From a virus, in IMG/VR virus record IMGVR_UViG_3300022407_006250, positions 1 to 64,000 of that record: a DNA stretch of 64,000 nt; one strand, written 5' to 3'. Within the stretch, counting starts at the first letter, position 1. Each line of letters begins with the position of its first letter. The notes beneath the pieces were generated by a model. That model was not told where the DNA came from. It worked only from the letters and a program-made list of their open reading frames with translations, and did no database searches. The translations under genes were made by a program, and so were the position numbers. This document shows positions 2,180-63,769 of this stretch, one piece after another.

Positions 2180-4399
2180 ATGAGTAATAATAAAATAGAA
2201 AAAATGATTGAAAGAGCAGTTGCCATTGCAAACGACAACAATCACGAGTATGTCACCCTAGAGCATGTTCTGCTTTCTATATTGCATGAAAAAGAAATAA
2301 ATGAACTTATTCTTTCAATTGGCGGCCAGCCTGCCAAAATTAAAACTGATGCAATTCAATTTTTGGGTGATCCTGCCCTAAGAAAACCCGATGCTTTAAA
2401 AGATGTTCCTGCAAAGCGCACACAAACTTTAAATAGAACGTTTCAGCGTGCTTTAACTCAACAAATTTTTAGTGGTCGTAATGAACTTACCAATGAGACA
2501 GTGCTGCTCAGTATGTTAAGTGAAGAAACCAGTCATGCATATTATTTTCTTACAAAAAATGGTGTAAGTAGAGAAAAAATTATTGCTCATTTGCGCAAGG
2601 CTGATGGAAAATCACCCCAAGGGGAAGATAGCCCACTTGATCTTTATGCAAGAAACCTAAACAACGATGCCACAGAAGGCACCATTGACCCTGTCATTGG
2701 ACGAGAAAAAGAAGTTGCTGACACAATTGAAATTCTTGCACGCCGTAAGAAAAACAACGTTATTTATGTTGGTGAGCCTGGTGTTGGTAAAACATGTTTG
2801 GCCGAAGGTCTAGCATTAAAGATTGTAAACAAGGAAGTGCCTAAAGCAATTCAAGACAAGGTTATTTACAGCTTAGATATGGGAGCATTGCTTGCAGGAA
2901 CAAAGTTCCGTGGAGACTTTGAGGAACGATTAAAGGGCATTCTTGATCAGGTCAAGAAACTTAAAAATTGCATCTTGTTCATTGACGAAATTCACATGAT
3001 CTTGGGTGCTGGTTCAACCACAGGCAGTCAAATGGATGCAGGTAACTTGCTAAAGCCCATGCTTGCCAAGGGAGAGTTGATGTGTGTTGGTGCAACCACA
3101 TACGATGAATTCCACGAACACTTTGAAAAAGACAAGGCACTGCTACGTCGTTTCCAAAAGTATGATATTAATCAGCCCTCAGCAGCAGAAACAAAACTTA
3201 TTTTGGCTGGCCTAACCAAGCACTATGAAAAGTTCCACGGTGTTGCATATGCTGAAGGTATGACAGATTTGTGTGTTGATCTAGCAGATCGATACTTAAA
3301 GTCTAAATTCTTCCCAGACAAGGCCATTGATATCATGGACTCGGCAGGTGCCAAAGCCAAACTCAATGAAGAGTTGCAAGTTACAGCAGATATAGTACTT
3401 CAACAAGCAGCTAAAATTGCACGTATTCCTGCACACACCATGGACATAAGGGAAAATGATTTGCTTGAAAATATTGCTCCAAGAATCAAAGACAAGGTGT
3501 ACGGGCAAGATGAAGCAATTGATAGGCTAGTAGAAGCAGTTTATCTTGCCAAGGCCGGCTTGCGTAATGCAACAAAACCAATTGGAAGTTTCTTGTTTAC
3601 TGGCCGAACAGGTACAGGTAAAACATATACCGCAAAGCAATTGGCAAAGCAGTTGGGTGTACACTTTGCTAGATTCGACATGAGCGAATACATGGAAAAG
3701 CACACTGTATCCAAGTTTATTGGTGCTCCTCCGGGCTATGTGGGTCACGGCGAGGGCAAGATGGGAGAAGGACAGCTCATTCAGGCAATTGATACACATC
3801 CCAACTGTGTTCTGTTGCTAGATGAAATTGAAAAGGCTCATCCGGATGTTATCACTGTGTTGCTACAATTAATGGATGATGCAAGATTGACTTCTAGCAA
3901 AGGTAAAACTGTTGATGCATCGAATACCATTATTATCATGTCGGCCAACTTGGGTGCTGCTGATTCTGAAAAATTAAAGATTGGTTTTGGAGATCAAGAT
4001 AATTCATCTGTGGTAGATAAAGAAATTAAAAAGTTCTTTAGCCCTGAATTTAGAAACAGAATTGATGCTATTGTCAAATTCAACAAGCTAACCATGAACG
4101 AAATGAGTCTAATTGTTAATGCTGAAATTGAAAAGACAGAAGTTATGTTGGCCCCTAAGAATATTATTATTAGAGTTACGCCAACAGCACGTGAATGGCT
4201 TGCAAACAAGGGATACGATCCAAAGATGGGTGCACGACCATTTGAGCGGTTGTTTGAAGAAAAAATTAAAAAGCCATTGGCTAAAGAAATTTTGTTTGGC
4301 AAACTAAAAGACGGTGGCCGGGCAGTTGTTAATTTGGACGAAGCTGGAGAAATCGTTATCTTTACAACCAGTTCAGTATCGGAAACAGTGCTAATATAA
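2180..4399 (+). CDS. clpA: ClpA-like Hsp100 AAA+ unfoldase
   Basis: Clp-N (HEYVTLEH), Walker A motifs GEPGVGKT and GRTGTGKT, LFIDEIH, RFDMSEY, GAPPGYVG, IGF ClpP-docking loop, GARP; no M-domain. Confidence 0.92.
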   Translation: MSNNKIEKMIERAVAIANDNNHEYVTLEHVLLSILHEKEINELILSIGGQPAKIKTDAIQFLGDPALRKPDALKDVPAKRTQTLNRTFQRALTQQIFSGRNELTNETVLLSMLSEETSHAYYFLTKNGVSREKIIAHLRKADGKSPQGEDSPLDLYARNLNNDATEGTIDPVIGREKEVADTIEILARRKKNNVIYVGEPGVGKTCLAEGLALKIVNKEVPKAIQDKVIYSLDMGALLAGTKFRGDFEERLKGILDQVKKLKNCILFIDEIHMILGAGSTTGSQMDAGNLLKPMLAKGELMCVGATTYDEFHEHFEKDKALLRRFQKYDINQPSAAETKLILAGLTKHYEKFHGVAYAEGMTDLCVDLADRYLKSKFFPDKAIDIMDSAGAKAKLNEELQVTADIVLQQAAKIARIPAHTMDIRENDLLENIAPRIKDKVYGQDEAIDRLVEAVYLAKAGLRNATKPIGSFLFTGRTGTGKTYTAKQLAKQLGVHFARFDMSEYMEKHTVSKFIGAPPGYVGHGEGKMGEGQLIQAIDTHPNCVLLLDEIEKAHPDVITVLLQLMDDARLTSSKGKTVDASNTIIIMSANLGAADSEKLKIGFGDQDNSSVVDKEIKKFFSPEFRNRIDAIVKFNKLTMNEMSLIVNAEIEKTEVMLAPKNIIIRVTPTAREWLANKGYDPKMGARPFERLFEEKIKKPLAKEILFGKLKDGGRAVVNLDEAGEIVIFTTSSVSETVLI

Positions 4400-8258: not shown

Positions 8259-11200
8259 GCAGAGCAGCAGATATTTTACTTAGACTCGGTGATACAAATC
8301 CAATTGTACCAACATCCGGTCAAATTTCATTTTATGCCAAGGACAACGGTATTTTTTATTCACTGGATTCCAACGGGATTGAAACTCCTTTATTTGGAGG
8401 AACCGGAACTGTTACCAGTATTGATGTCGGTGGCGGCACAACAGGACTAACAACCATTGGCGGCCCAGTCACAACAAACGGAACTATTACACTAACTGGT
8501 ACACTGTTTGAAACTCACGGCGGTACCGGCGTAAATACATATATTACCGGTGACATGCTTTATGCATCAGCTGCCAATACACTAAGTAAAAGATCCATTG
8601 GCGCTGACGGACAAGTATTGACTGTCAGTGGTGGAGTACCAACATGGTCCACAGTATCCGGAACTGGCACAGTAACCAGTGTAGCAATGACTGTGCCCGA
8701 TTTCCTTTCTGTAACAGGAAGTCCAATTACGTCCAGTGGAACACTAGCAGTTTCTTTATCCGGAACAGCACTGCCTATTGCTAATGGCGGTACTGGTGCA
8801 AACACAGCCAATTCGGCATTTAATGCATTGGCACCTACACAGACTGGTAATGCCGGCAAGTTCTTAACCACAGACGGCACAGATACTAGCTGGGCCACAA
8901 TATCCGGAACTGGTACTGTAACATCAGTCGAAGTCAGTGGTGGCACAACTGGACTAACAACTACAGGTGGACCAGTTACTGAATCAGGTACAATTACACT
9001 AGCAGGGATACTCAATATTGCCAATGGCGGTACAGGTGCAAATACAGCACCCGAGGCAAGAACTAATCTTGGTGCAACCACTGTTGGTTCAAACTTTTTC
9101 ACATTAACAGACCCGGGTGCAGTTACTTTTACACGTATTAACGCAGATAATAGTGTTAGTGCACTTGACGCAGAATCATTTAGAACTGCCATTGGTGCAG
9201 GAACAAGTTCAACAACAGGTACTGTAACCAGCATTGAAGTCAGTGGCGGAACCACAGGACTAACAACAACAGGCGGCCCTGTCACTGGGTCAGGAACAAT
9301 TACACTAGCAGGAACACTTGCTGTTGCCAATGGCGGTACTGGTGCAACAGAACTAACCGGATACATTAAAGGTAACGGAACTAGTGCATTTACAGCAAAT
9401 AATAGTATTCCTTCAACAGATATTACCGGGCTTGGTGATCTTTCAACTATAAATAAAGACAATGTCGCAACGCATGTTTTACTTGGAACAGGAGTTTTTG
9501 GAAATGTTCCTATTGGCGGCAATGATACAGAAATACTTTTTAATAACTTGGGTGTATCCGATGGTTCAAATAACTTTGTTTATAATGATGCAACATCCAC
9601 AGTAAAGATTGGTGGCGATTTAAATTATGCCGATTCAACTAAGTTATCTGTGGTTGAAAATAAAGATGGCTTTGGACAGGTCCTATTCCAGAATAAAAAT
9701 GCTGGAAGCAATGCATCAATGAATTTAGCTATAGTTAATAACAGTGCCGGAACAGATTATATGGCAATTGGTATTAATTCAAGTGCATTTTCGGAAGTTT
9801 ATAATACATTATTTGAACTACCAAATGCAGGCTATATTAGTAATACAACCGATGTTATAATCGGTGCTCAAAGCGACCATTCAAGTGCATCTAGGACATA
9901 TTTTACATATGCTAGTGGTTCTAATGCATTAGAATTAAATGAATACGGTGCACTAGGTTGGGGCGCAAGCTATAACGGAACTCTTACACAGGCTAATTTT
10001 GGTACAGCTGGCCAGGTATTGGTATCTGCCGGTCCTAGTGCTCCACCAGCATGGACAAACATTAGTTCATCTGGTACTGTAACATCAGTCGAAGTCAGTG
10101 GTGGCACAACTGGACTAACAACAAGCGGCGGTCCTGTCACTGAGTCAGGTACAATTACACTAGCAGGAATACTTAATATTGCCAATGGCGGTACTGGTGC
10201 AAACACAGCCAATTCGGCTTTTAATGCATTGGCACCTACACAGACTGGTAACAGCGGTAAGTTTTTAACCACAGATGGCACAGATACTAGTTGGGCAACA
10301 ATATCTGGTACAGGTACTGTAACCAGCATTGAAGTCAGTGGTGGAACCACAGGACTAACAACTACAGGTGGCCCTGTCACTGGGTCAGGAACAATTACAC
10401 TATCTGGAACACTTGCTATTACCAATGGTGGTACTGGTGCAAACACAGCACCCGATGCAAGAACTAATCTTGGTGCATCCATCGTTGGTGGAAACATCTT
10501 TACGCTAGCAAATCCCGGTGCAGTAACATATTTGCGTGTCAATGCAGACAATAGTGTCAGCGCACTTGATGCAGATTCTTTTAGAACTGCAATTGGTGCA
10601 GGAACAAGTTCAACAACAGGTACTGTAACATCAGTCGACATCAGTGGTGGCACAACAGGACTAACAACAACAGGCGGCCCTGTTACTGGCAGCGGAATAA
10701 TTACCCTATCTGGGACACTTGCTATTGCCAATGGCGGAACTGGTGCAAATACAGCACCCGATGCAAGAACTAATCTTGGTGCAACCACTATTGGTGGCAA
10801 TTTATTCACATTAACTAATCCAGGTGCAATTACCTTCCCTCGCTTTAATGCAGACAATAGTGTCAGCGCACTTGATGCGGCTTCCTTTAGAACTGCAATT
10901 GGAGCAGGCACAAGTTCAACAACTGGTACAGTAACTAGTGTAGCAATGACTGTACCTGCTTTCCTTTCTGTAACAGGCAGCCCTGTTACATCCAGTGGAA
11001 CATTGGCAGTTTCTTTGTCTGGCACAGCATTGCCCATTGCCAATGGCGGTACAGGTGCAACTACAGCTAACACAGCGTTCAATGCTTTGGCACCTGCACA
11101 GACTGGTAACAGCGGCAAGTTCTTAACAACAGATGGTACAACAACAAGTTGGTCCACAGTTTCTGGAACTGGTACTGTAACAAGTGTTGATGTATCCGGT

Positions 11201-62118: not shown

Positions 62119-62202
62119 GCCCCGGTGGCGAAATGGTATACGCAAGAGACTTAAAATCTCTCGTCGAGAGGCATGCCGGTTCGAGTCCGGCCCGGGGCAC
62201 CA
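62119..62202 (+). tRNA. tRNA-Leu(TAA)
   Basis: GCCCCGG/CCGGGGC acceptor, AGAGA-CTTAAAA-TCTCT anticodon arm, long variable arm, TTCGAGT, ACCA. Confidence 0.93.
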
Positions 62203-62285
62203 TATTGAAGCATATTGGTGTAAGATGGAGTCGCTCTCCCATTATTCAGTAGCACTGATAAAATCTAGTATATTTCAATATGGTG
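62198..62285 (+). ncRNA. stem-enclosed structured element 1
   Basis: caccatattgaa...ttcaatatggtg perfect 12-bp inverted repeat extending to ~20 bp, with inner hairpins. Confidence 0.5.
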
Positions 62286-62295
62286 TACGAAAGTC

Positions 62296-62411
62296 ACTAT
62301 ATTAAAACGCATTCAACGGCAAACAGGATACCTAGCAACTGGACGCAGGGGCTATCCAAATAGTAGGGCACTACAGCCGAAAGCTAGGAAAAGAGTGTGT
62401 TTCAATATGGT
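62296..62411 (+). ncRNA. stem-enclosed structured element 2
   Basis: actatattaaaacgcattc/gagtgtgtttcaatatggt 19-bp stem with G-U pairs; inner cctagc/gctagg and gtag-ggca-ctac. Confidence 0.5.
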
Positions 62412-62421
62412 AATGAAGTCT

Positions 62422-62506: not shown

Positions 62507-62516
62507 AACAATCTAT

Positions 62517-62589
62517 CGCGGGGAGGGTCTGGTCACCAGCGAGGTCTCATAAGCCTTTGCCATCCTTGGTTCAAATCCAGGTCCCGCAA
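62517..62589 (+). tRNA. initiator-type tRNA-Met(CAT)
   Basis: CGCGGGG/TCCCGCA with C1:A72 mismatch, GAGGT-CTCATAA-GCCTT, TTCAAAT; short D arm; CCA not encoded. Confidence 0.75.
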
Positions 62590-62605
62590 CCCAATTATAA
62601 ACAGT

Positions 62606-62701
62606 CATGGTGTAATGTAAGGGAAACATACGAGAAGTCCGAGAGTCGCAAGATGTTAGGCAACCCATGCTCAAATGGTTGGTTTGATTCCAACCCACCA
62701 G
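62606..62701 (+). pseudogene. tRNA-like element with expanded anticodon arm
   Basis: TGGTG/CACCA partial acceptor, ATGT/ACAT D-stem, GTTGG-TTTGATT-CCAAC T-arm, ~35-nt insert in place of the anticodon loop. Confidence 0.35.
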
Positions 62702-62722
62702 TTTTAAATAAAAAGGATTTAA

Positions 62723-62929
62723 ATGAACTCTCAGTATCGTGAACGAGCTGTGGCCATGCTACAGCAAATTAAAACTTTTCCTGCTGGATCAGGCATTAAA
62801 CACATAAAGACCGGGCGGGTGTATACAGTAGACCATGTGCATATCCAAGATTATAATTTATTGATTCATACAGCTGACAAACAGGTTTTTCAAGCAAAGA
62901 AATATACTGTATTAAAGAATATTAAGTAA
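62723..62929 (+). CDS. hypothetical protein
   Basis: AAGGA RBS; KHIKTG..Y.V. Confidence 0.6.
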   Translation: MNSQYRERAVAMLQQIKTFPAGSGIKHIKTGRVYTVDHVHIQDYNLLIHTADKQVFQAKKYTVLKNIK

Positions 62930-62950
62930 TAAATACTAAATACATCGAGT

Positions 62951-63045
62951 ACATAACTGATGAGCCTGGAAGGGCGAAACGATATTGGAACTTGTAGAGT
63001 CGTTCGGGAACCGTAAAGGGGACTCTCGTTCCAATCGTATTATGT
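62951..63045 (+). ncRNA. type I hammerhead ribozyme
   Basis: stem I ACATAA/TTATGT, core CTGATGA, stem II GCCT-GGAA-GGGC, core GAAA, stem III CGAT..TGGAAC/GTTCCAATCG, GUA cleavage triplet at 63037-63039. Confidence 0.88.
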
Positions 63046-63252
63046 TAAATATATTGCAATAAGGTGACTATCCAAAGAACTTAAAAATAAAACCAAATAT
63101 ATTGTTAAAGGGTGTAAAGCCCTTGTCACTTTCTATTATGCGTAATAGAAATACTCTTATAAGTCTAAAAAATGTTAGATGAATAATTGCATGTTTATCA
63201 TGCAATGGAGATTGATACTCTTATATATGGTGTCAACAATGTGAAAACAATG

Positions 63253-63279
63253 AAGCCCACCATGGTGGGCTTTCTCTTT
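63253..63279 (+). terminator. intrinsic terminator
   Basis: 20-bp palindrome aagcccaccatggtgggctt followed by a pyrimidine tract. Confidence 0.7.
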
Positions 63280-63290
63280 GGAAGTTTTTT

Positions 63291-63344
63291 ATTGACACAG
63301 TCGGAACATGACGTTATACTGAAGGCTAAGTTAAACACAAAGGA
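63291..63344 (+). repeat. promoter+RBS cassette, copy 1
   Basis: TTGACA-17-TATACT...AAGGA; 50/54 identical to 63711-63764. Confidence 0.9.
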
Positions 63345-63351
63345 GCACAGC

Positions 63352-63711
63352 ATGAAAGTTTTTGTATACTTTAATCTTCATAAGAAAGTTTTTAGTGTTC
63401 GCGCAATGGAAGGCGAAAACAAAGGCCGTGTGATTGCTCACACCACAACTGTTGAACTGCGCGATGCTGTGTTCAAAGTATCCCAGGCAGGGCGTGAACG
63501 AGTGCTCAAAGAAAAGCGTAAAAATGTACACGCTGGTGTACAAGGGCAATGGGTTGCATGGTCGGGCGACAATGTGGATGACCTTGATGCTGTCACATAT
63601 AACCCCTACAAGTATAGCAGCTTTGTTACTGTTGCTGACCAAACACCGGTTCGAACTGCTGCTCGTGCTGTGTTGAACAATCGCAAAATACAAGCTCAAC
63701 TCACAAATTAA
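63352..63711 (+). CDS. hypothetical early protein
   Basis: AAGGAG RBS; VYFNLHK..FSV, F.VS.AGRERVL.EKRKNVHA, YNPYK. Confidence 0.8.
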   Translation: MKVFVYFNLHKKVFSVRAMEGENKGRVIAHTTTVELRDAVFKVSQAGRERVLKEKRKNVHAGVQGQWVAWSGDNVDDLDAVTYNPYKYSSFVTVADQTPVRTAARAVLNNRKIQAQLTN

Positions 63712-63764
63712 TTGACACAGTTGGAACATGATGTTATACTAAGGGCTAAGTTAAACACAAAGGA
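63711..63764 (+). repeat. promoter+RBS cassette, copy 2
   Basis: direct repeat 420 bp downstream of copy 1. Confidence 0.9.
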
Positions 63765-63769
63765 ACAAA

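Follow-up and report, generated by a model that had tools for sequence, protein, structure and literature searches.

Until now, hammerhead ribozymes in phages have been interpreted as devices that cleave polycistronic mRNA, and why phages carry them is still largely unexplained. The known examples lie beside genes, and their presumed role is to divide polycistronic transcripts into gene-length segments; the candidates were required to have intact closing pairs 1.1-2.1, 10.1-11.1 and 15.1-16.1 (Perreault et al. 2011, PMC3088659). GOLLD and ROOL are structured non-coding RNAs of phages and prophages, often found near tRNA genes, for which a ribozyme cap is not described in Weinberg et al. 2017 (PMC5737381). 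Theta ribozymes, which are minimal and HDV-like, are self-cleaving phage elements near tRNA genes, according to Kienbeck et al. 2024 (PMC10879173).

We analysed a 64,000-nt stretch of a large uncultured freshwater phage (positions 1 to 64,000 of IMG/VR record IMGVR_UViG_3300022407_006250; hereafter the window). The whole record comprises 100,785 nt (100.8 kb), or 28% of the genome. The sequence supports a short transcription unit consisting of a promoter, a hammerhead ribozyme, a folded RNA that codes for no protein, and a terminator (Table 1). It is probably, and we say so with considerable confidence, best explained as a non-coding RNA gene that is complete in itself and begins with a ribozyme. 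All elements listed in the original prediction are present, and its reading of the locus as a self-processing unit (promoter, ribozyme, predicted RNA release, terminator) is supported by 16 related units.

The ribozyme resembles the type I hammerheads of phages and prophages (RF00163, clan CL00010) in its catalytic core, three-helix topology, open stem I and intergenic location. Unlike the known phage hammerheads, it heads a terminator-bounded non-coding RNA with its own predicted promoter, and its long stem III (41-134 nt across the family), conserved internal loop and score below the Rfam thresholds set it further apart. The unit shares with GOLLD and ROOL that it encodes a phage-borne structured non-coding RNA near tRNA genes, but its family is much smaller (242-513 nt). 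Compared with theta ribozymes, we again see a small phage ribozyme, predicted to be self-cleaving, in a tRNA neighbourhood. It has a different fold, however, the nearest tRNA is ~360 nt away with an ORF between, and the RNA to be matured is not a tRNA.

Table 1. Features of the unit and its immediate neighbours, in window coordinates.
Feature	Position	Strand	Details or basis
ORF A, 68 aa, upstream neighbour outside the RNA unit	62723-62929	+	AAGGA ribosome-binding site
Two overlapping T4-late-like promoter motifs	62929-62942	+	ATAAATA 62929-62935; CTAAATA 62936-62942
Type I hammerhead ribozyme, 95 nt	62951-63045	+	descriptor scan, fold, model R1, family covariation
Stem I	62951-62956 (ACAUAA) with 63040-63045 (UUAUGU)	+	six pairs
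Core CUGAUGA	62957-62963	+	
Stem II	62964-62975	+	four pairs, GGAA loop
GAAA	62976-62979	+	
Extended stem III, 58 nt	62980-63037	+	folds; family alignment
Cleavage triplet GUA	63037-63039	+	
Predicted self-cleavage site	63039/63040	+	from hammerhead architecture
Non-coding RNA, predicted 3' cleavage product, 242 nt	63040-63281	+	no ORF led by a ribosome-binding site, fold, model R2, alignment
Conserved single-stranded block, AAGGUGACUAUCCAAAGAAC in the window	63062-63081	+	UAUYCAA(A/G) core invariant across 14 aligned sequences
Hairpin Hb (AGGGU / GCCCU)	63109-63123	+	homologous hairpin in 14 of 14 sequences, mean z -2.65
GYCACUU motif between Hb and Hc	63125-63131	+	near-invariant alignment columns
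Hairpin Hc (UUUCUAUUA / UAAUAGAAA, loop UGCG)	63130-63151	+	formed in 14 of 14 sequences, stem sequences differ
Diverged 3' domain	63162-63236	+	AGUCU...UGUUAGAUGAA and two hairpins
3'-domain hairpin UUGCAUG/CAUGCAA	63187-63205	+	predicted fold
3'-domain hairpin UUGAUAC/GUGUCAA	63212-63218 with 63230-63236	+	predicted fold
Intrinsic terminator	63253-63281	+	8-bp GC-rich hairpin 63253-63272, then UCUCUUUGG
Sigma-70 promoter (TTGACA-17-TATACT) and ribosome-binding-site cassette for the next gene, outside the unit	63288-63347	+	

A type I hammerhead with an extended stem III

The ribozyme was the single match to hammerhead descriptors of any type, on both strands, in the window and in the 100,785-nt record. 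The scan bears out the earlier claim of a complete type I hammerhead with all core nucleotides, a GUA site and a predicted cut after 63039. The catalytic core nucleotides C3 U4 G5 A6 N7 G8 A9 and G12 A13 A14 are all present (the latter being GAA 62976-78), the A15.1-U16.1 pair corresponds to A62979/U63038, and H17 is A63039. The core is flanked by three helices; stem I is the open one, and none of the closing pairs 1.1-2.1, 10.1-11.1 and 15.1-16.1 is disrupted. Among 200 Markov-shuffled genomes, relaxed hammerhead matches occurred at a rate of 0.01 per genome, and not one genome contained a match as good as the real one. The minimum-energy structure of the isolated 95-nt element (-26.9 kcal/mol) is the three-way junction. 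Hammerhead cleavage leaves a 2',3'-cyclic phosphate on the 5' product, which here would be A63039, and a 5'-OH on the 3' product, here U63040.

Stem III had been described as long and branched, with an agagtc/gactct helix. Its length and the helix are as described, but the predicted fold is one long irregular hairpin with an internal loop instead of a branched structure. From the core outward it consists of four to five pairs, a 2-nt bulge, six pairs, an asymmetric internal loop, the AGAGUC/GACUCU helix and an apical hairpin. The internal loop (UUGU opposite C) is conserved, and a CUUGUAG ... CUCG loop and a GUUYGGGA motif recur across the family alignment. Stem I is short (six pairs, most of them A-U) and uninterrupted by an internal loop. 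Fast natural hammerheads have a tertiary contact between stem I and loop II; the sole candidate for one here is UCCA at 63071-74, a 4-nt complement to loop II that is within chance expectation. When the fold is extended by the 9 nt upstream, a competing hairpin (62943-62962) takes up the CUGAUG core and exceeds the active fold in stability by 3 kcal/mol, so that transcripts starting upstream may cleave slowly or only under certain conditions.

An Infernal search with the Rfam hammerhead models, suggested as a check in the original prediction, did not reach the thresholds at this site. RF00008 scored 17.3 bits against a threshold of 48.5, over a partial stretch only, and RF00163 gave no match at the hammerhead. 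The length of stem III, together with a stem I that is short and open, probably accounts for both results. Canonical-looking phage hammerheads in contigs L068, L030 and L054 likewise escape Rfam, which makes its silence on the window hammerhead uninformative.

Pattern scans of uncultured phage and metagenome contigs uncovered 16 further distinct copies of the hammerhead, so that with the window there are 17 units. An exact 24-mer of the ribozyme core is absent from IMG/VR. A covariance model built from 15 relatives with the window excluded (R1) matched the window copy over its full length (70.4 bits, E = 2e-13). Paired cells make up 97.6% in alignment A7, compared with 77.5 +/- 1.4 in shuffles (0 of 500 as high) and 30-45% with the partners slid; as A7 and the RNA alignment A9 (below) were fitted to the structures of the models, these pairing percentages are inflated. 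Changes on both sides are seen in 13 of the 20 helix pairs of A7, and an anchored per-stem table made without the model gives the same picture of covariation. Because the search patterns prescribed the hammerhead core and the 5' strand of stem I, the identity of the core in 17 of 17 units is partly forced. Stems II and III, which the patterns left unconstrained, show three to five pair types per position. Loop II is nearly always GNRA, and H17 is A in all 17 units. The comparative sequence data confirm the motif as a genuine type I hammerhead, for which self-cleavage is predicted.

The downstream RNA and its relatives

The predicted 3' cleavage product is the smallest of a conserved family of 242-513-nt RNAs. 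As had been noted before, the region lacks an ORF led by a ribosome-binding site (none lies within 62930-63351), and the four hairpins named at that time can all be found. A 246-nt downstream stretch folds better than its shuffles (z = -4.3). Model R2, a covariance model of the core built from six relatives with the window excluded, gives a single match in the window (63013-63159; 25.9 bits, E = 5e-4) and also recovers all other members. Homologous blocks and hairpins are present in 14 sequences (the window and 13 relatives). Covariation of the 3' product across related phages had been proposed as a check: the product is conserved and covarying, with changes on both sides in 21 of 23 core pairs. 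In A9, 82.1% of cells pair, compared with 59.9 +/- 1.8 in shuffles, the former value being inflated as explained for A7. Hb covaries in four of its five pairs and Hc in 11 of 12, with 87% of the Hc cells paired in the family alignment. AGGUGAC (63062-68) can pair with GUCACUU (63125-31), and this long-range helix is seen in the predicted fold. MAFFT alignments of the core were inconsistent in helix register, and covariance-model alignments were used instead; RNAalifold returned no structure for the gappy full-length alignment.

The 3' domain is more diverged. MAFFT sets that of the window against a AGUCUCUGAGAACACUGGAGGGAA - hairpin - GGAACAUUGAAGG domain of the relatives, with weaker homology than in the core. 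Features of the relatives that are missing from the window RNA are block A, hairpin Ha and most of the 3' domain. Given these missing domains and the R2 score of just 25.9 bits, it could be a decaying copy.

Several assignments of the RNA were considered and dropped. A GAUAUAUC palindrome occurs in the conserved block of many relatives, and dimerisation through it was rejected as a family-wide feature because it is missing in the window and in L198. The only hint of a cobalamin-riboswitch B12 box was GCCACU. GGA motifs showed, on informal inspection, no clear enrichment that would suggest a CsrA sponge, ARAGORN found no tmRNA, and the drum RNA motif gave no Rfam match, the drum paper reporting no association with a ribozyme.

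The ribozyme recurs in at least 16 other phage contigs, 13-14 of which also have the RNA; in L182 and L187 the two occur apart. The phages that carry the family are large and uncultured, and their DNA polymerase is a distant relative of the enzymes of Atu_ph07 and the Rak2-type jumbo phages. Searches with R1 and R2 gave no convincing match in Phosso, Atu_ph07, Vibrio phage 2.275.O or Escherichia phage UE-S1 (best E = 0.05). A blastn search of GenBank phages with the region gave nothing, as did one with the larger L175 unit, and blastn revealed no paralogue of the RNA elsewhere in the genome. Rfam 15 contains no match to the RNA unit, and permissive cmscan runs (E <= 10 for the window, E <= 0.1 for five relatives) returned neither GOLLD, ROOL nor any other non-coding RNA family for the unit. 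Our literature search found no paper describing a hammerhead-RNA unit of this kind.

Transcription signals and genomic setting

A T4-type late promoter is a TATAAATA-like element located ~6 nt upstream of the transcription start and is served by a phage-encoded late sigma factor (gp55-like) and a co-activator. The candidate promoter sequence in the window reads AATAAATA, then ACTAAATA, and the ATAAATA of the original prediction is indeed present. From the T4 late-promoter geometry, transcription starts are predicted near 62941 and 62948. The window motif has A and not the preferred G at position -1, and there is no T-rich stretch upstream of it. By a rough estimate, about one in four AT-rich 440-nt spacers would contain an ATAAATA-like motif by chance. 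Across the window, 25 [AG]TAAATA sites lie at most 70 nt upstream of ORF starts, compared with 7.3 +/- 2.7 in shuffled windows (3.4-fold), and four sites on the opposite strand; in the genome, the enriched sites are those on the coding strand that precede ORF starts by 15-35 nt. Judged by its distribution, [AG]TAAATA is a genuine promoter-like element in the genome to which the window belongs.

In 11 of the 17 units a promoter is found directly upstream, of the ATAAATA type in the window and eight relatives and of the sigma-70 type in two. The distance from the end of the ATAAATA-type motif to stem I is 4-15 nt in the window and five relatives, and 86 nt in the other three; the two sigma-70 promoters (11/12) lie where the nearer motifs do. 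The placement supports a transcription start that would coincide with the beginning of stem I or precede it by a few bases. The TAATAAATAC junction of ORF A is also found in L095, at the end of a small ORF unrelated to it. The TAATAAATA/ATAAATA junction is preceded by unrelated ORFs (window, L095) or by no ORF at all (L170, L173).

At the other end of the unit, the predicted terminator is present as a hairpin and a U-rich tail. The stem has five G-C pairs and is palindromic (the program listed it on the minus strand). The interrupted U-tract leaves the efficiency of termination uncertain. The GCCCA...UGGGCUUUCU(C/U)UU end is conserved in the family, with equivalent ends in 13 relatives. The promoter and ribosome-binding-site cassette that follows is repeated at 63708-63767, and a sigma-70 promoter directly after the terminator is a feature of the relatives as well. 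An upstream promoter in 11 of 17 units, a conserved terminator and then a separate sigma-70 promoter support an independent transcription unit.

Genes for tRNA-Leu, tRNA-Tyr and tRNA-Met are situated 360-830 nt upstream of the unit, the nearest ending ~360 nt away with ORF A in between; tRNA genes or T-arm-like elements are also found near the unit in L169, L178 and L198. The tRNA-Tyr shares 92% identity with its counterpart in a Limnohabitans phage. The TAA stop codon of ORF A overlaps the ATAAATA motif. ORF A has five homologues (74-95% identity, with a variable C-terminus) in a protein collection, but none was found in IMG/VR or the JGI metagenomes, nor by tblastn in GenBank phages. Homologues of the genes at 64541-65498 are located downstream of the unit in seven relatives. 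Relatives of ORF B (L003-L082) are at most 62% identical; their contigs do not contain the unit, and other hammerheads are seen in them.

Alternative readings and proposed function

Could the hammerhead merely trim the tRNA-ORF A transcript, giving it a structured 3' end with a cyclic phosphate, and be followed by 240 nt of non-functional AT-rich spacer? No terminator was found between ORF A and the ribozyme, and read-through transcripts must therefore contain it. Most type I hammerheads recovered from IMG/VR directly follow a stop codon, with the cut 15-40 nt ahead of the next start codon, in line with the gene-flanking phage hammerheads of Perreault et al. 2011 (PMC3088659), and in one family member, L182, the ribozyme is directly followed by a ribosome-binding site and an ORF. 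Against this stand the downstream RNA, conserved and covarying in 14 units, and the presence of a promoter, and not an ORF, directly before the ribozyme in L170, L173, L183 and L193. We consider this reading unlikely. Trimming and RNA release can coexist; what the comparative data exclude is that the 3' part is a mere spacer.

The position of the unit upstream of ORF B (63352 onward), with a terminator at its end, might suggest a cis-acting leader or attenuator controlling the downstream early genes, and in Rfam the stretch 63178-63279 weakly matches a Phe-leader-like model (23 bits, threshold 55). This match is due solely to the terminator hairpin, however; an 11/12 sigma-70 promoter and a separate ribosome-binding site intervene between the terminator and ORF B, and the genes after the unit vary among relatives, all of which makes such control very unlikely. 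Even less credible is a small protein encoded in the 3' region. A 21-aa hydrophobic ORF (63179-63244) and a 45-aa ORF on the minus strand (63068-63205) do exist, but both lack a ribosome-binding site, a search of 5.8 billion proteins returned no homologue of the 45-aa ORF, the indels of the relatives are not multiples of three, and substitutions preserve base pairs and not codons. Finally, a chance match to the hammerhead pattern in AT-rich spacer DNA, for which one could cite the sub-threshold Rfam scores and the very large sequence total scanned, in which rare chance matches are expected somewhere, has a negligible probability and is refuted by the compensatory changes in 16 homologous copies, the E-value of 2e-13 from an independent model and the failure of all 200 shuffled genomes to yield an equally good match.

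For the reading as a self-contained non-coding RNA gene, we propose the following mechanism. Transcription, of which we infer both the promoter and the timing, would start from ATAAATA/CTAAATA (T4-late type) just upstream of stem I, and transcripts running on from the tRNA-ORF A region would likewise cover the unit. In vivo, the first ~95 nt would fold as a type I hammerhead and cut themselves between A63039 and U63040, which would remove the 5' triphosphate leader and free a 242-nt RNA with a fixed 5'-OH end (UUAUGUU...) and a 3' end set by the terminator. The ribozyme would thus be a built-in device for 5'-end maturation, providing an identical 5' end whichever promoter feeds the RNA. The 5'-OH end would presumably be a poor substrate for 5'-end-dependent decay and may stabilise the RNA. 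In the larger relatives, the freed 5' end (UUGUGU) could re-pair with a downstream ACACAA and close the first RNA domain, whereby the cut would become irreversible. The freed RNA most likely acts in trans as a folded RNA during infection, for example by binding proteins or as a scaffold.

We are evenly divided over a broader proposal, namely that the unit represents a previously undescribed class in which a hammerhead with a conserved, elaborated stem III and a conserved structured 240-510-nt RNA are expressed from host- or phage-type promoters and act in trans during infection in a jumbo-phage lineage, serving, for instance, as a decoy or scaffold for proteins or, in the manner of GOLLD and ROOL, as an ornate RNA that associates with itself, with both cleavage products possibly being functional.

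The 242-nt copy in the window marks the minimal core of the RNA, namely the UAUCCAAAG block, Hb, the GYCACUU motif and Hc. Being the smallest copy, it offers a convenient start for structure probing and the search for binding partners. The family adds a new structured RNA with strong covariation to the few phage-borne RNAs known near tRNA genes. The job proposed for its ribozyme is clear and testable: it would give a conserved non-coding RNA, equipped with a promoter and a terminator of its own, its mature 5' end, and would thereby be a natural counterpart to the ribozyme insulators of synthetic biology.

Hammerhead at 62951-63045

The sequence features listed in the original prediction of a promoter, a type I hammerhead, a non-coding RNA of about 235 nt and a terminator were all found where they had been placed. 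A descriptor search covering all three topologies on both strands of the entire record found no other hammerhead. In 200 Markov-shuffled genomes, a relaxed descriptor gave 0.01 matches per genome, and none of the quality of the real site. The minimum-energy structure of the isolated 95-nt element is the active three-way junction; when nine further upstream bases are included, a rival hairpin (62943-62962) that occludes the CUGAUG core is favoured by 3 kcal/mol. The Rfam hammerhead models returned nothing at gathering score (RF00008, 17.3 bits on a partial stretch; RF00163, no match). Given that Rfam likewise misses canonical-looking type I hammerheads at other phage loci, this silence reflects a limit of sensitivity and does not count against the ribozyme. 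On all the sequence and structure criteria that could be tested, the predicted ribozyme belongs to the hammerhead class; it falls short only of the Rfam score cut-offs.

Features of the unit and its surroundings
Feature	Position	Detail
tRNA-Leu	62119-62202	
tRNA, GUA (Tyr) anticodon	62422-62503	Rfam, 35 bits; missed by ARAGORN
tRNA-Met	62516-62593	
ORF A (68 aa)	62723-62929	after tRNA-Met, before the unit
Stem I	62951-62956, 63040-63045	ACAUAA pairs with UUAUGU
Core CUGAUGA	62957-62963	
Stem II	62964-62975	GCCU-GGAA-GGGC
GAAA	62976-62979	
Stem III	62980-63037	58 nt
GUA triplet	63037-63039	predicted cleavage after A63039
Hairpin Ha		first shared element of the RNA; absent from the window
Near-invariant single-stranded block	63062-63078	AAGGAGAUAUAUCCAAAG in most units; AAGGUGACUAUCCAAAG in the window
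Hairpin Hb	63109-63123	
GYCACUU motif	63125-63131	
Hairpin Hc	63130-63151	
AAUGCA-like and AU-rich stretches		between Hc and the 3' domain
3' domain	63162-63236	GAGAACACUGGAGGGAA, hairpin, GGAACAUUGAAGG; only faintly recognisable in the window
Terminator	63253-63281	last shared element
Sigma-70 promoter/RBS cassettes, two, near-identical	63288-63347, 63708-63767	3' of the unit; drive early-type genes
[AG]TAAATA, example sites from the whole record	4471, 4912, 6066, 14215, 33201, 36489, 39010, 42232	

Stems were compared across 17 units by anchoring on the invariant core. Positions 2-4 of stem II show 4, 3 and 3 pair types (Watson-Crick or G-U) and positions 2-8 of stem III up to 5; loop II is GNRA in 13/17 units and H17 is A in all 17. 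Relative to the common ACACAA/UUGUGU, stem I of the window carries one compensatory change, for which the relative L189 has the U-G intermediate. A covariance model built from 15 relatives, with the window left out, matched the window element over the full model length (70.4 bits, E 2e-13), its sole match in the window. In the alignment, which was fitted to the model and in which the search patterns fixed the core and the 5' strand of stem I and left stems II and III unconstrained, 97.6% of cells are paired, compared with 77.5 ± 1.4% in shuffles (0/500 reach it) and 30-45% with partners slid, and 13 of 20 pairs show changes on both sides. Stem III has an asymmetric internal loop that is conserved (CUUGUAG facing CUCG), as well as a GUUYGGGA motif, an elaboration that to our knowledge is not required for ordinary hammerhead catalysis.

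Relatives and promoter

Direct DNA searches (blastn against GenBank phages; an exact 24-mer of the ribozyme core in IMG/VR) and flanking-protein searches recovered no relatives of the unit. Relatives came to light when IMG/VR was scanned for a pattern joining the promoter motif to a downstream hammerhead core. About half of the 80 loci listed have complete type I hammerheads. Contigs often hold several of them, and most lie right after a stop codon, with the cut 15-40 nt ahead of the following start codon, which is the arrangement in Perreault et al. 2011 (PMC3088659). Five of the IMG/VR loci (L095, L140, L169, L170 and L173) differ from that layout. They have stem I, the promoter junction and the long stem III in common with the window and, like it, continue downstream with a long segment free of ORFs, then a terminator resembling that of the window and a sigma-70 promoter. 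Two promoter-free pattern scans (viral contigs; metagenomes) brought the total to 17 distinct units including the window; one contig, TBL_comb47_HYPODRAFT, may, to judge by its name, come from a lake hypolimnion sample. Three genes 3' of the window's unit (64541-65498) have homologues 3' of the unit in seven relatives' contigs, so the units represent one phage lineage and one genomic position. The four nearest cultured jumbo phages contain no convincing copy.

In the 70 nt preceding each of 173 crude ORF starts in this genome, the motif [AG]TAAATA is found 25 times on the coding strand, usually at a distance of 15-35 nt from the start codon; shuffled windows gave 7.3 ± 2.7 and the opposite strand 4. 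Such enrichment marks it as a genuine promoter-like element resembling T4 late promoters. The genome-wide consensus is a T-rich stretch, then G, then [AG]TAAATA, before many start codons. Sigma-70-type promoters are also present in the 62-64-kb stretch that was scanned for them. The distance from the end of the motif to stem I is 4-15 nt in the window and in the five relatives obtained with the motif-requiring pattern, four of which (L095, L169, L170, L173) were found again by a motif-free pattern. In L175, L178 and L189 the distance is 86 nt and the leader is conserved; L183 and L193 have an 11/12 sigma-70 promoter whose end lies 7-11 nt before stem I. The ORF before the junction TAATAAATAC differs between the window and L095 and is missing from L170 and L173; the motif is therefore part of the RNA unit and not of the ORF. 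By T4 geometry, the transcription start would coincide with the ribozyme's first base or lie just ahead of it, and we assume transcription to be late.

Several contigs show hammerheads in other settings. L089, L106, L115, L122, L141, L146 and L162 (IMG/VR) carry three to six type I hammerheads each, with near-identical stem I among copies, placed between consecutive genes, which fits serial processing of polycistronic RNA. In L068 (2900-3500), an unrelated phage contig, a homologue of the phrog_586 gene that follows the unit in the window lies between hammerhead sites: a complete type I hammerhead (3436-3484, a descriptor match missed by Rfam) cuts ~35 nt before the next start codon, and an apparent 3' half of a second lies 5' of the homologue. 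L182 carries a hammerhead of the window family's subtype (minus strand, 1299-1376; ACACAA stem I, CUUGUAG loop) with AAGGAG and an ORF directly after it in place of the non-coding RNA, indicating that the ribozyme module can be recombined onto mRNAs. L186 has, 5' of its unit (~920-1080), an 18-bp helix (GUUGUAUGUUUCUGUGUG / CACACAGAAACAUACAAC) around core-like sequence CUGACGAG; a second ribozyme is one possible reading, a long hairpin another.

The released RNA family

The four hairpins and the terminator hairpin predicted downstream are real. The 246-nt downstream stretch has a fold z of -4.3 and contains no ORF with a ribosome-binding site. We aligned 14 units from cleavage site to terminator, with lengths from 242 nt (window) to 513 nt. 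A ~130-nt 5' domain is also absent from the window, where the RNA resembles the larger form after loss of an internal segment that has brought AAGGUAACU next to AUCCAAAG; this copy, the most reduced member, might be degenerating. Hb and Hc occupy the homologous place in every sequence with differing stem sequences (mean z ~ -2.6 relative to shuffles). A core model (Ha, Hb, Hc) from six large relatives recovers all other members, with one window match (63013-63159; 25.9 bits, E 5e-4). It also matches L187, ~660 nt past the family hammerhead of that unit; the sequence between them is unrelated (8270-9189, minus strand), apparently an insertion.

The 3' product covaries across relatives: in the model-fitted core alignment, 82.1% of cells pair, compared with 59.9 ± 1.8% in shuffles (0/500) and 37-47% with partners slid, with changes on both sides in 21 of 23 pairs and covariation in 11 of the 12 pairs of Hc. 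Indels among relatives are not multiples of three and there is no common reading frame; a 45-aa minus-strand ORF had no homologue in a protein search. Scanned against Rfam 15, neither the window RNA (at E up to 10) nor five relatives (at E up to 0.1) matched any family. Within the near-invariant block, a perfect palindrome, GAUAUAUC, is found in L173, L170, L178, L140, L183, L193 and others; in L169 and L175 it holds if G-U pairs are allowed, and the window and L198 lack it. The palindrome could mediate RNA-RNA dimerisation.

Genomic setting and proposed processing

CheckV estimates the record (100,785 nt, of which the window is the first 64 kb) to be 28% complete, so the source phage is probably of jumbo size. 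Its GC content is 42%, and its family-B DNA polymerase is nearest those of Sinorhizobium phage Phosso, Agrobacterium phage Atu_ph07 and Rak2-type Escherichia phages (39-43% identity). The unit is located at the end of the tRNA region. The GUA-anticodon tRNA is 92% identical to tRNA-Tyr of Limnohabitans phage DC31, a likeness that hints at a freshwater betaproteobacterial host.

The phrog_586 gene is flanked on both sides by a 60-nt promoter-plus-RBS cassette (TTGACA-17-TATACT; copies 90% identical). Between tRNA-Leu and tRNA-Tyr (62198-62412) are two long hairpin cassettes with related arms (CACCAUAUUGAAGCAUA... pairing with ...UAUAUUUCAAUAUGGUG) and unrelated interiors, the first arm beginning at the CCA end of tRNA-Leu; 18-20-mers weakly similar to the arms also occur at 63047 and 63095, within the non-coding RNA. 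Just 5' of the unit in L170, L173, L175, L178 and L095 is a conserved ~95-nt element (GGGGAUGC ... CCGGUUCAAGACCGG) with a T-arm-like hairpin, itself preceded by the T-arm-like hairpin GGGGUUUCGAGUCCCC. The window stretch 62594-62722, ending in GGUUGGUUUGAUUCCAACC, is possibly homologous to this element. ARAGORN and Rfam called no tRNA in the T-arm-like elements or in the window stretch.

Our literature search found no published description of such a ribozyme and RNA unit. GOLLD and ROOL RNAs have a similar phage-and-tRNA context but differ in sequence, size and presence of a ribozyme. Theta ribozymes have in common the idea that a ribozyme matures RNA in phages but differ in fold and substrate. 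Two aspects are new: the RNA family itself is undescribed, and the ribozyme appears to cap the 5' end of a gene devoted to a non-coding RNA.

We propose that transcription begins from a promoter placed just ahead of the ribozyme; transcripts of the tRNA/ORF A region could also run on into the unit, as there is no terminator between ORF A and the ribozyme. The hammerhead would then fold and cut after A63039, yielding a 5' piece of ~90-100 nt with a triphosphate end, a cyclic phosphate and the conserved stem III, and a 3' piece that would be a fixed-sequence 5'-OH RNA up to the terminator. RNA decay in bacteria can depend on the 5' end, and a 5'-OH should slow degradation. The ribozyme would give the RNA one 5' end whichever promoter is used, which would account for the tolerance of different promoter types in the family. 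For nine larger relatives, the alignment indicates that the freshly exposed 5' end (UUGUGU) could pair with a downstream ACACAA-like stretch, which would lock the product fold; the window has no such partner. The conserved single-stranded blocks and covarying hairpins suggest that the released RNA is structured and acts in trans, and speak against a role as an antisense regulator.
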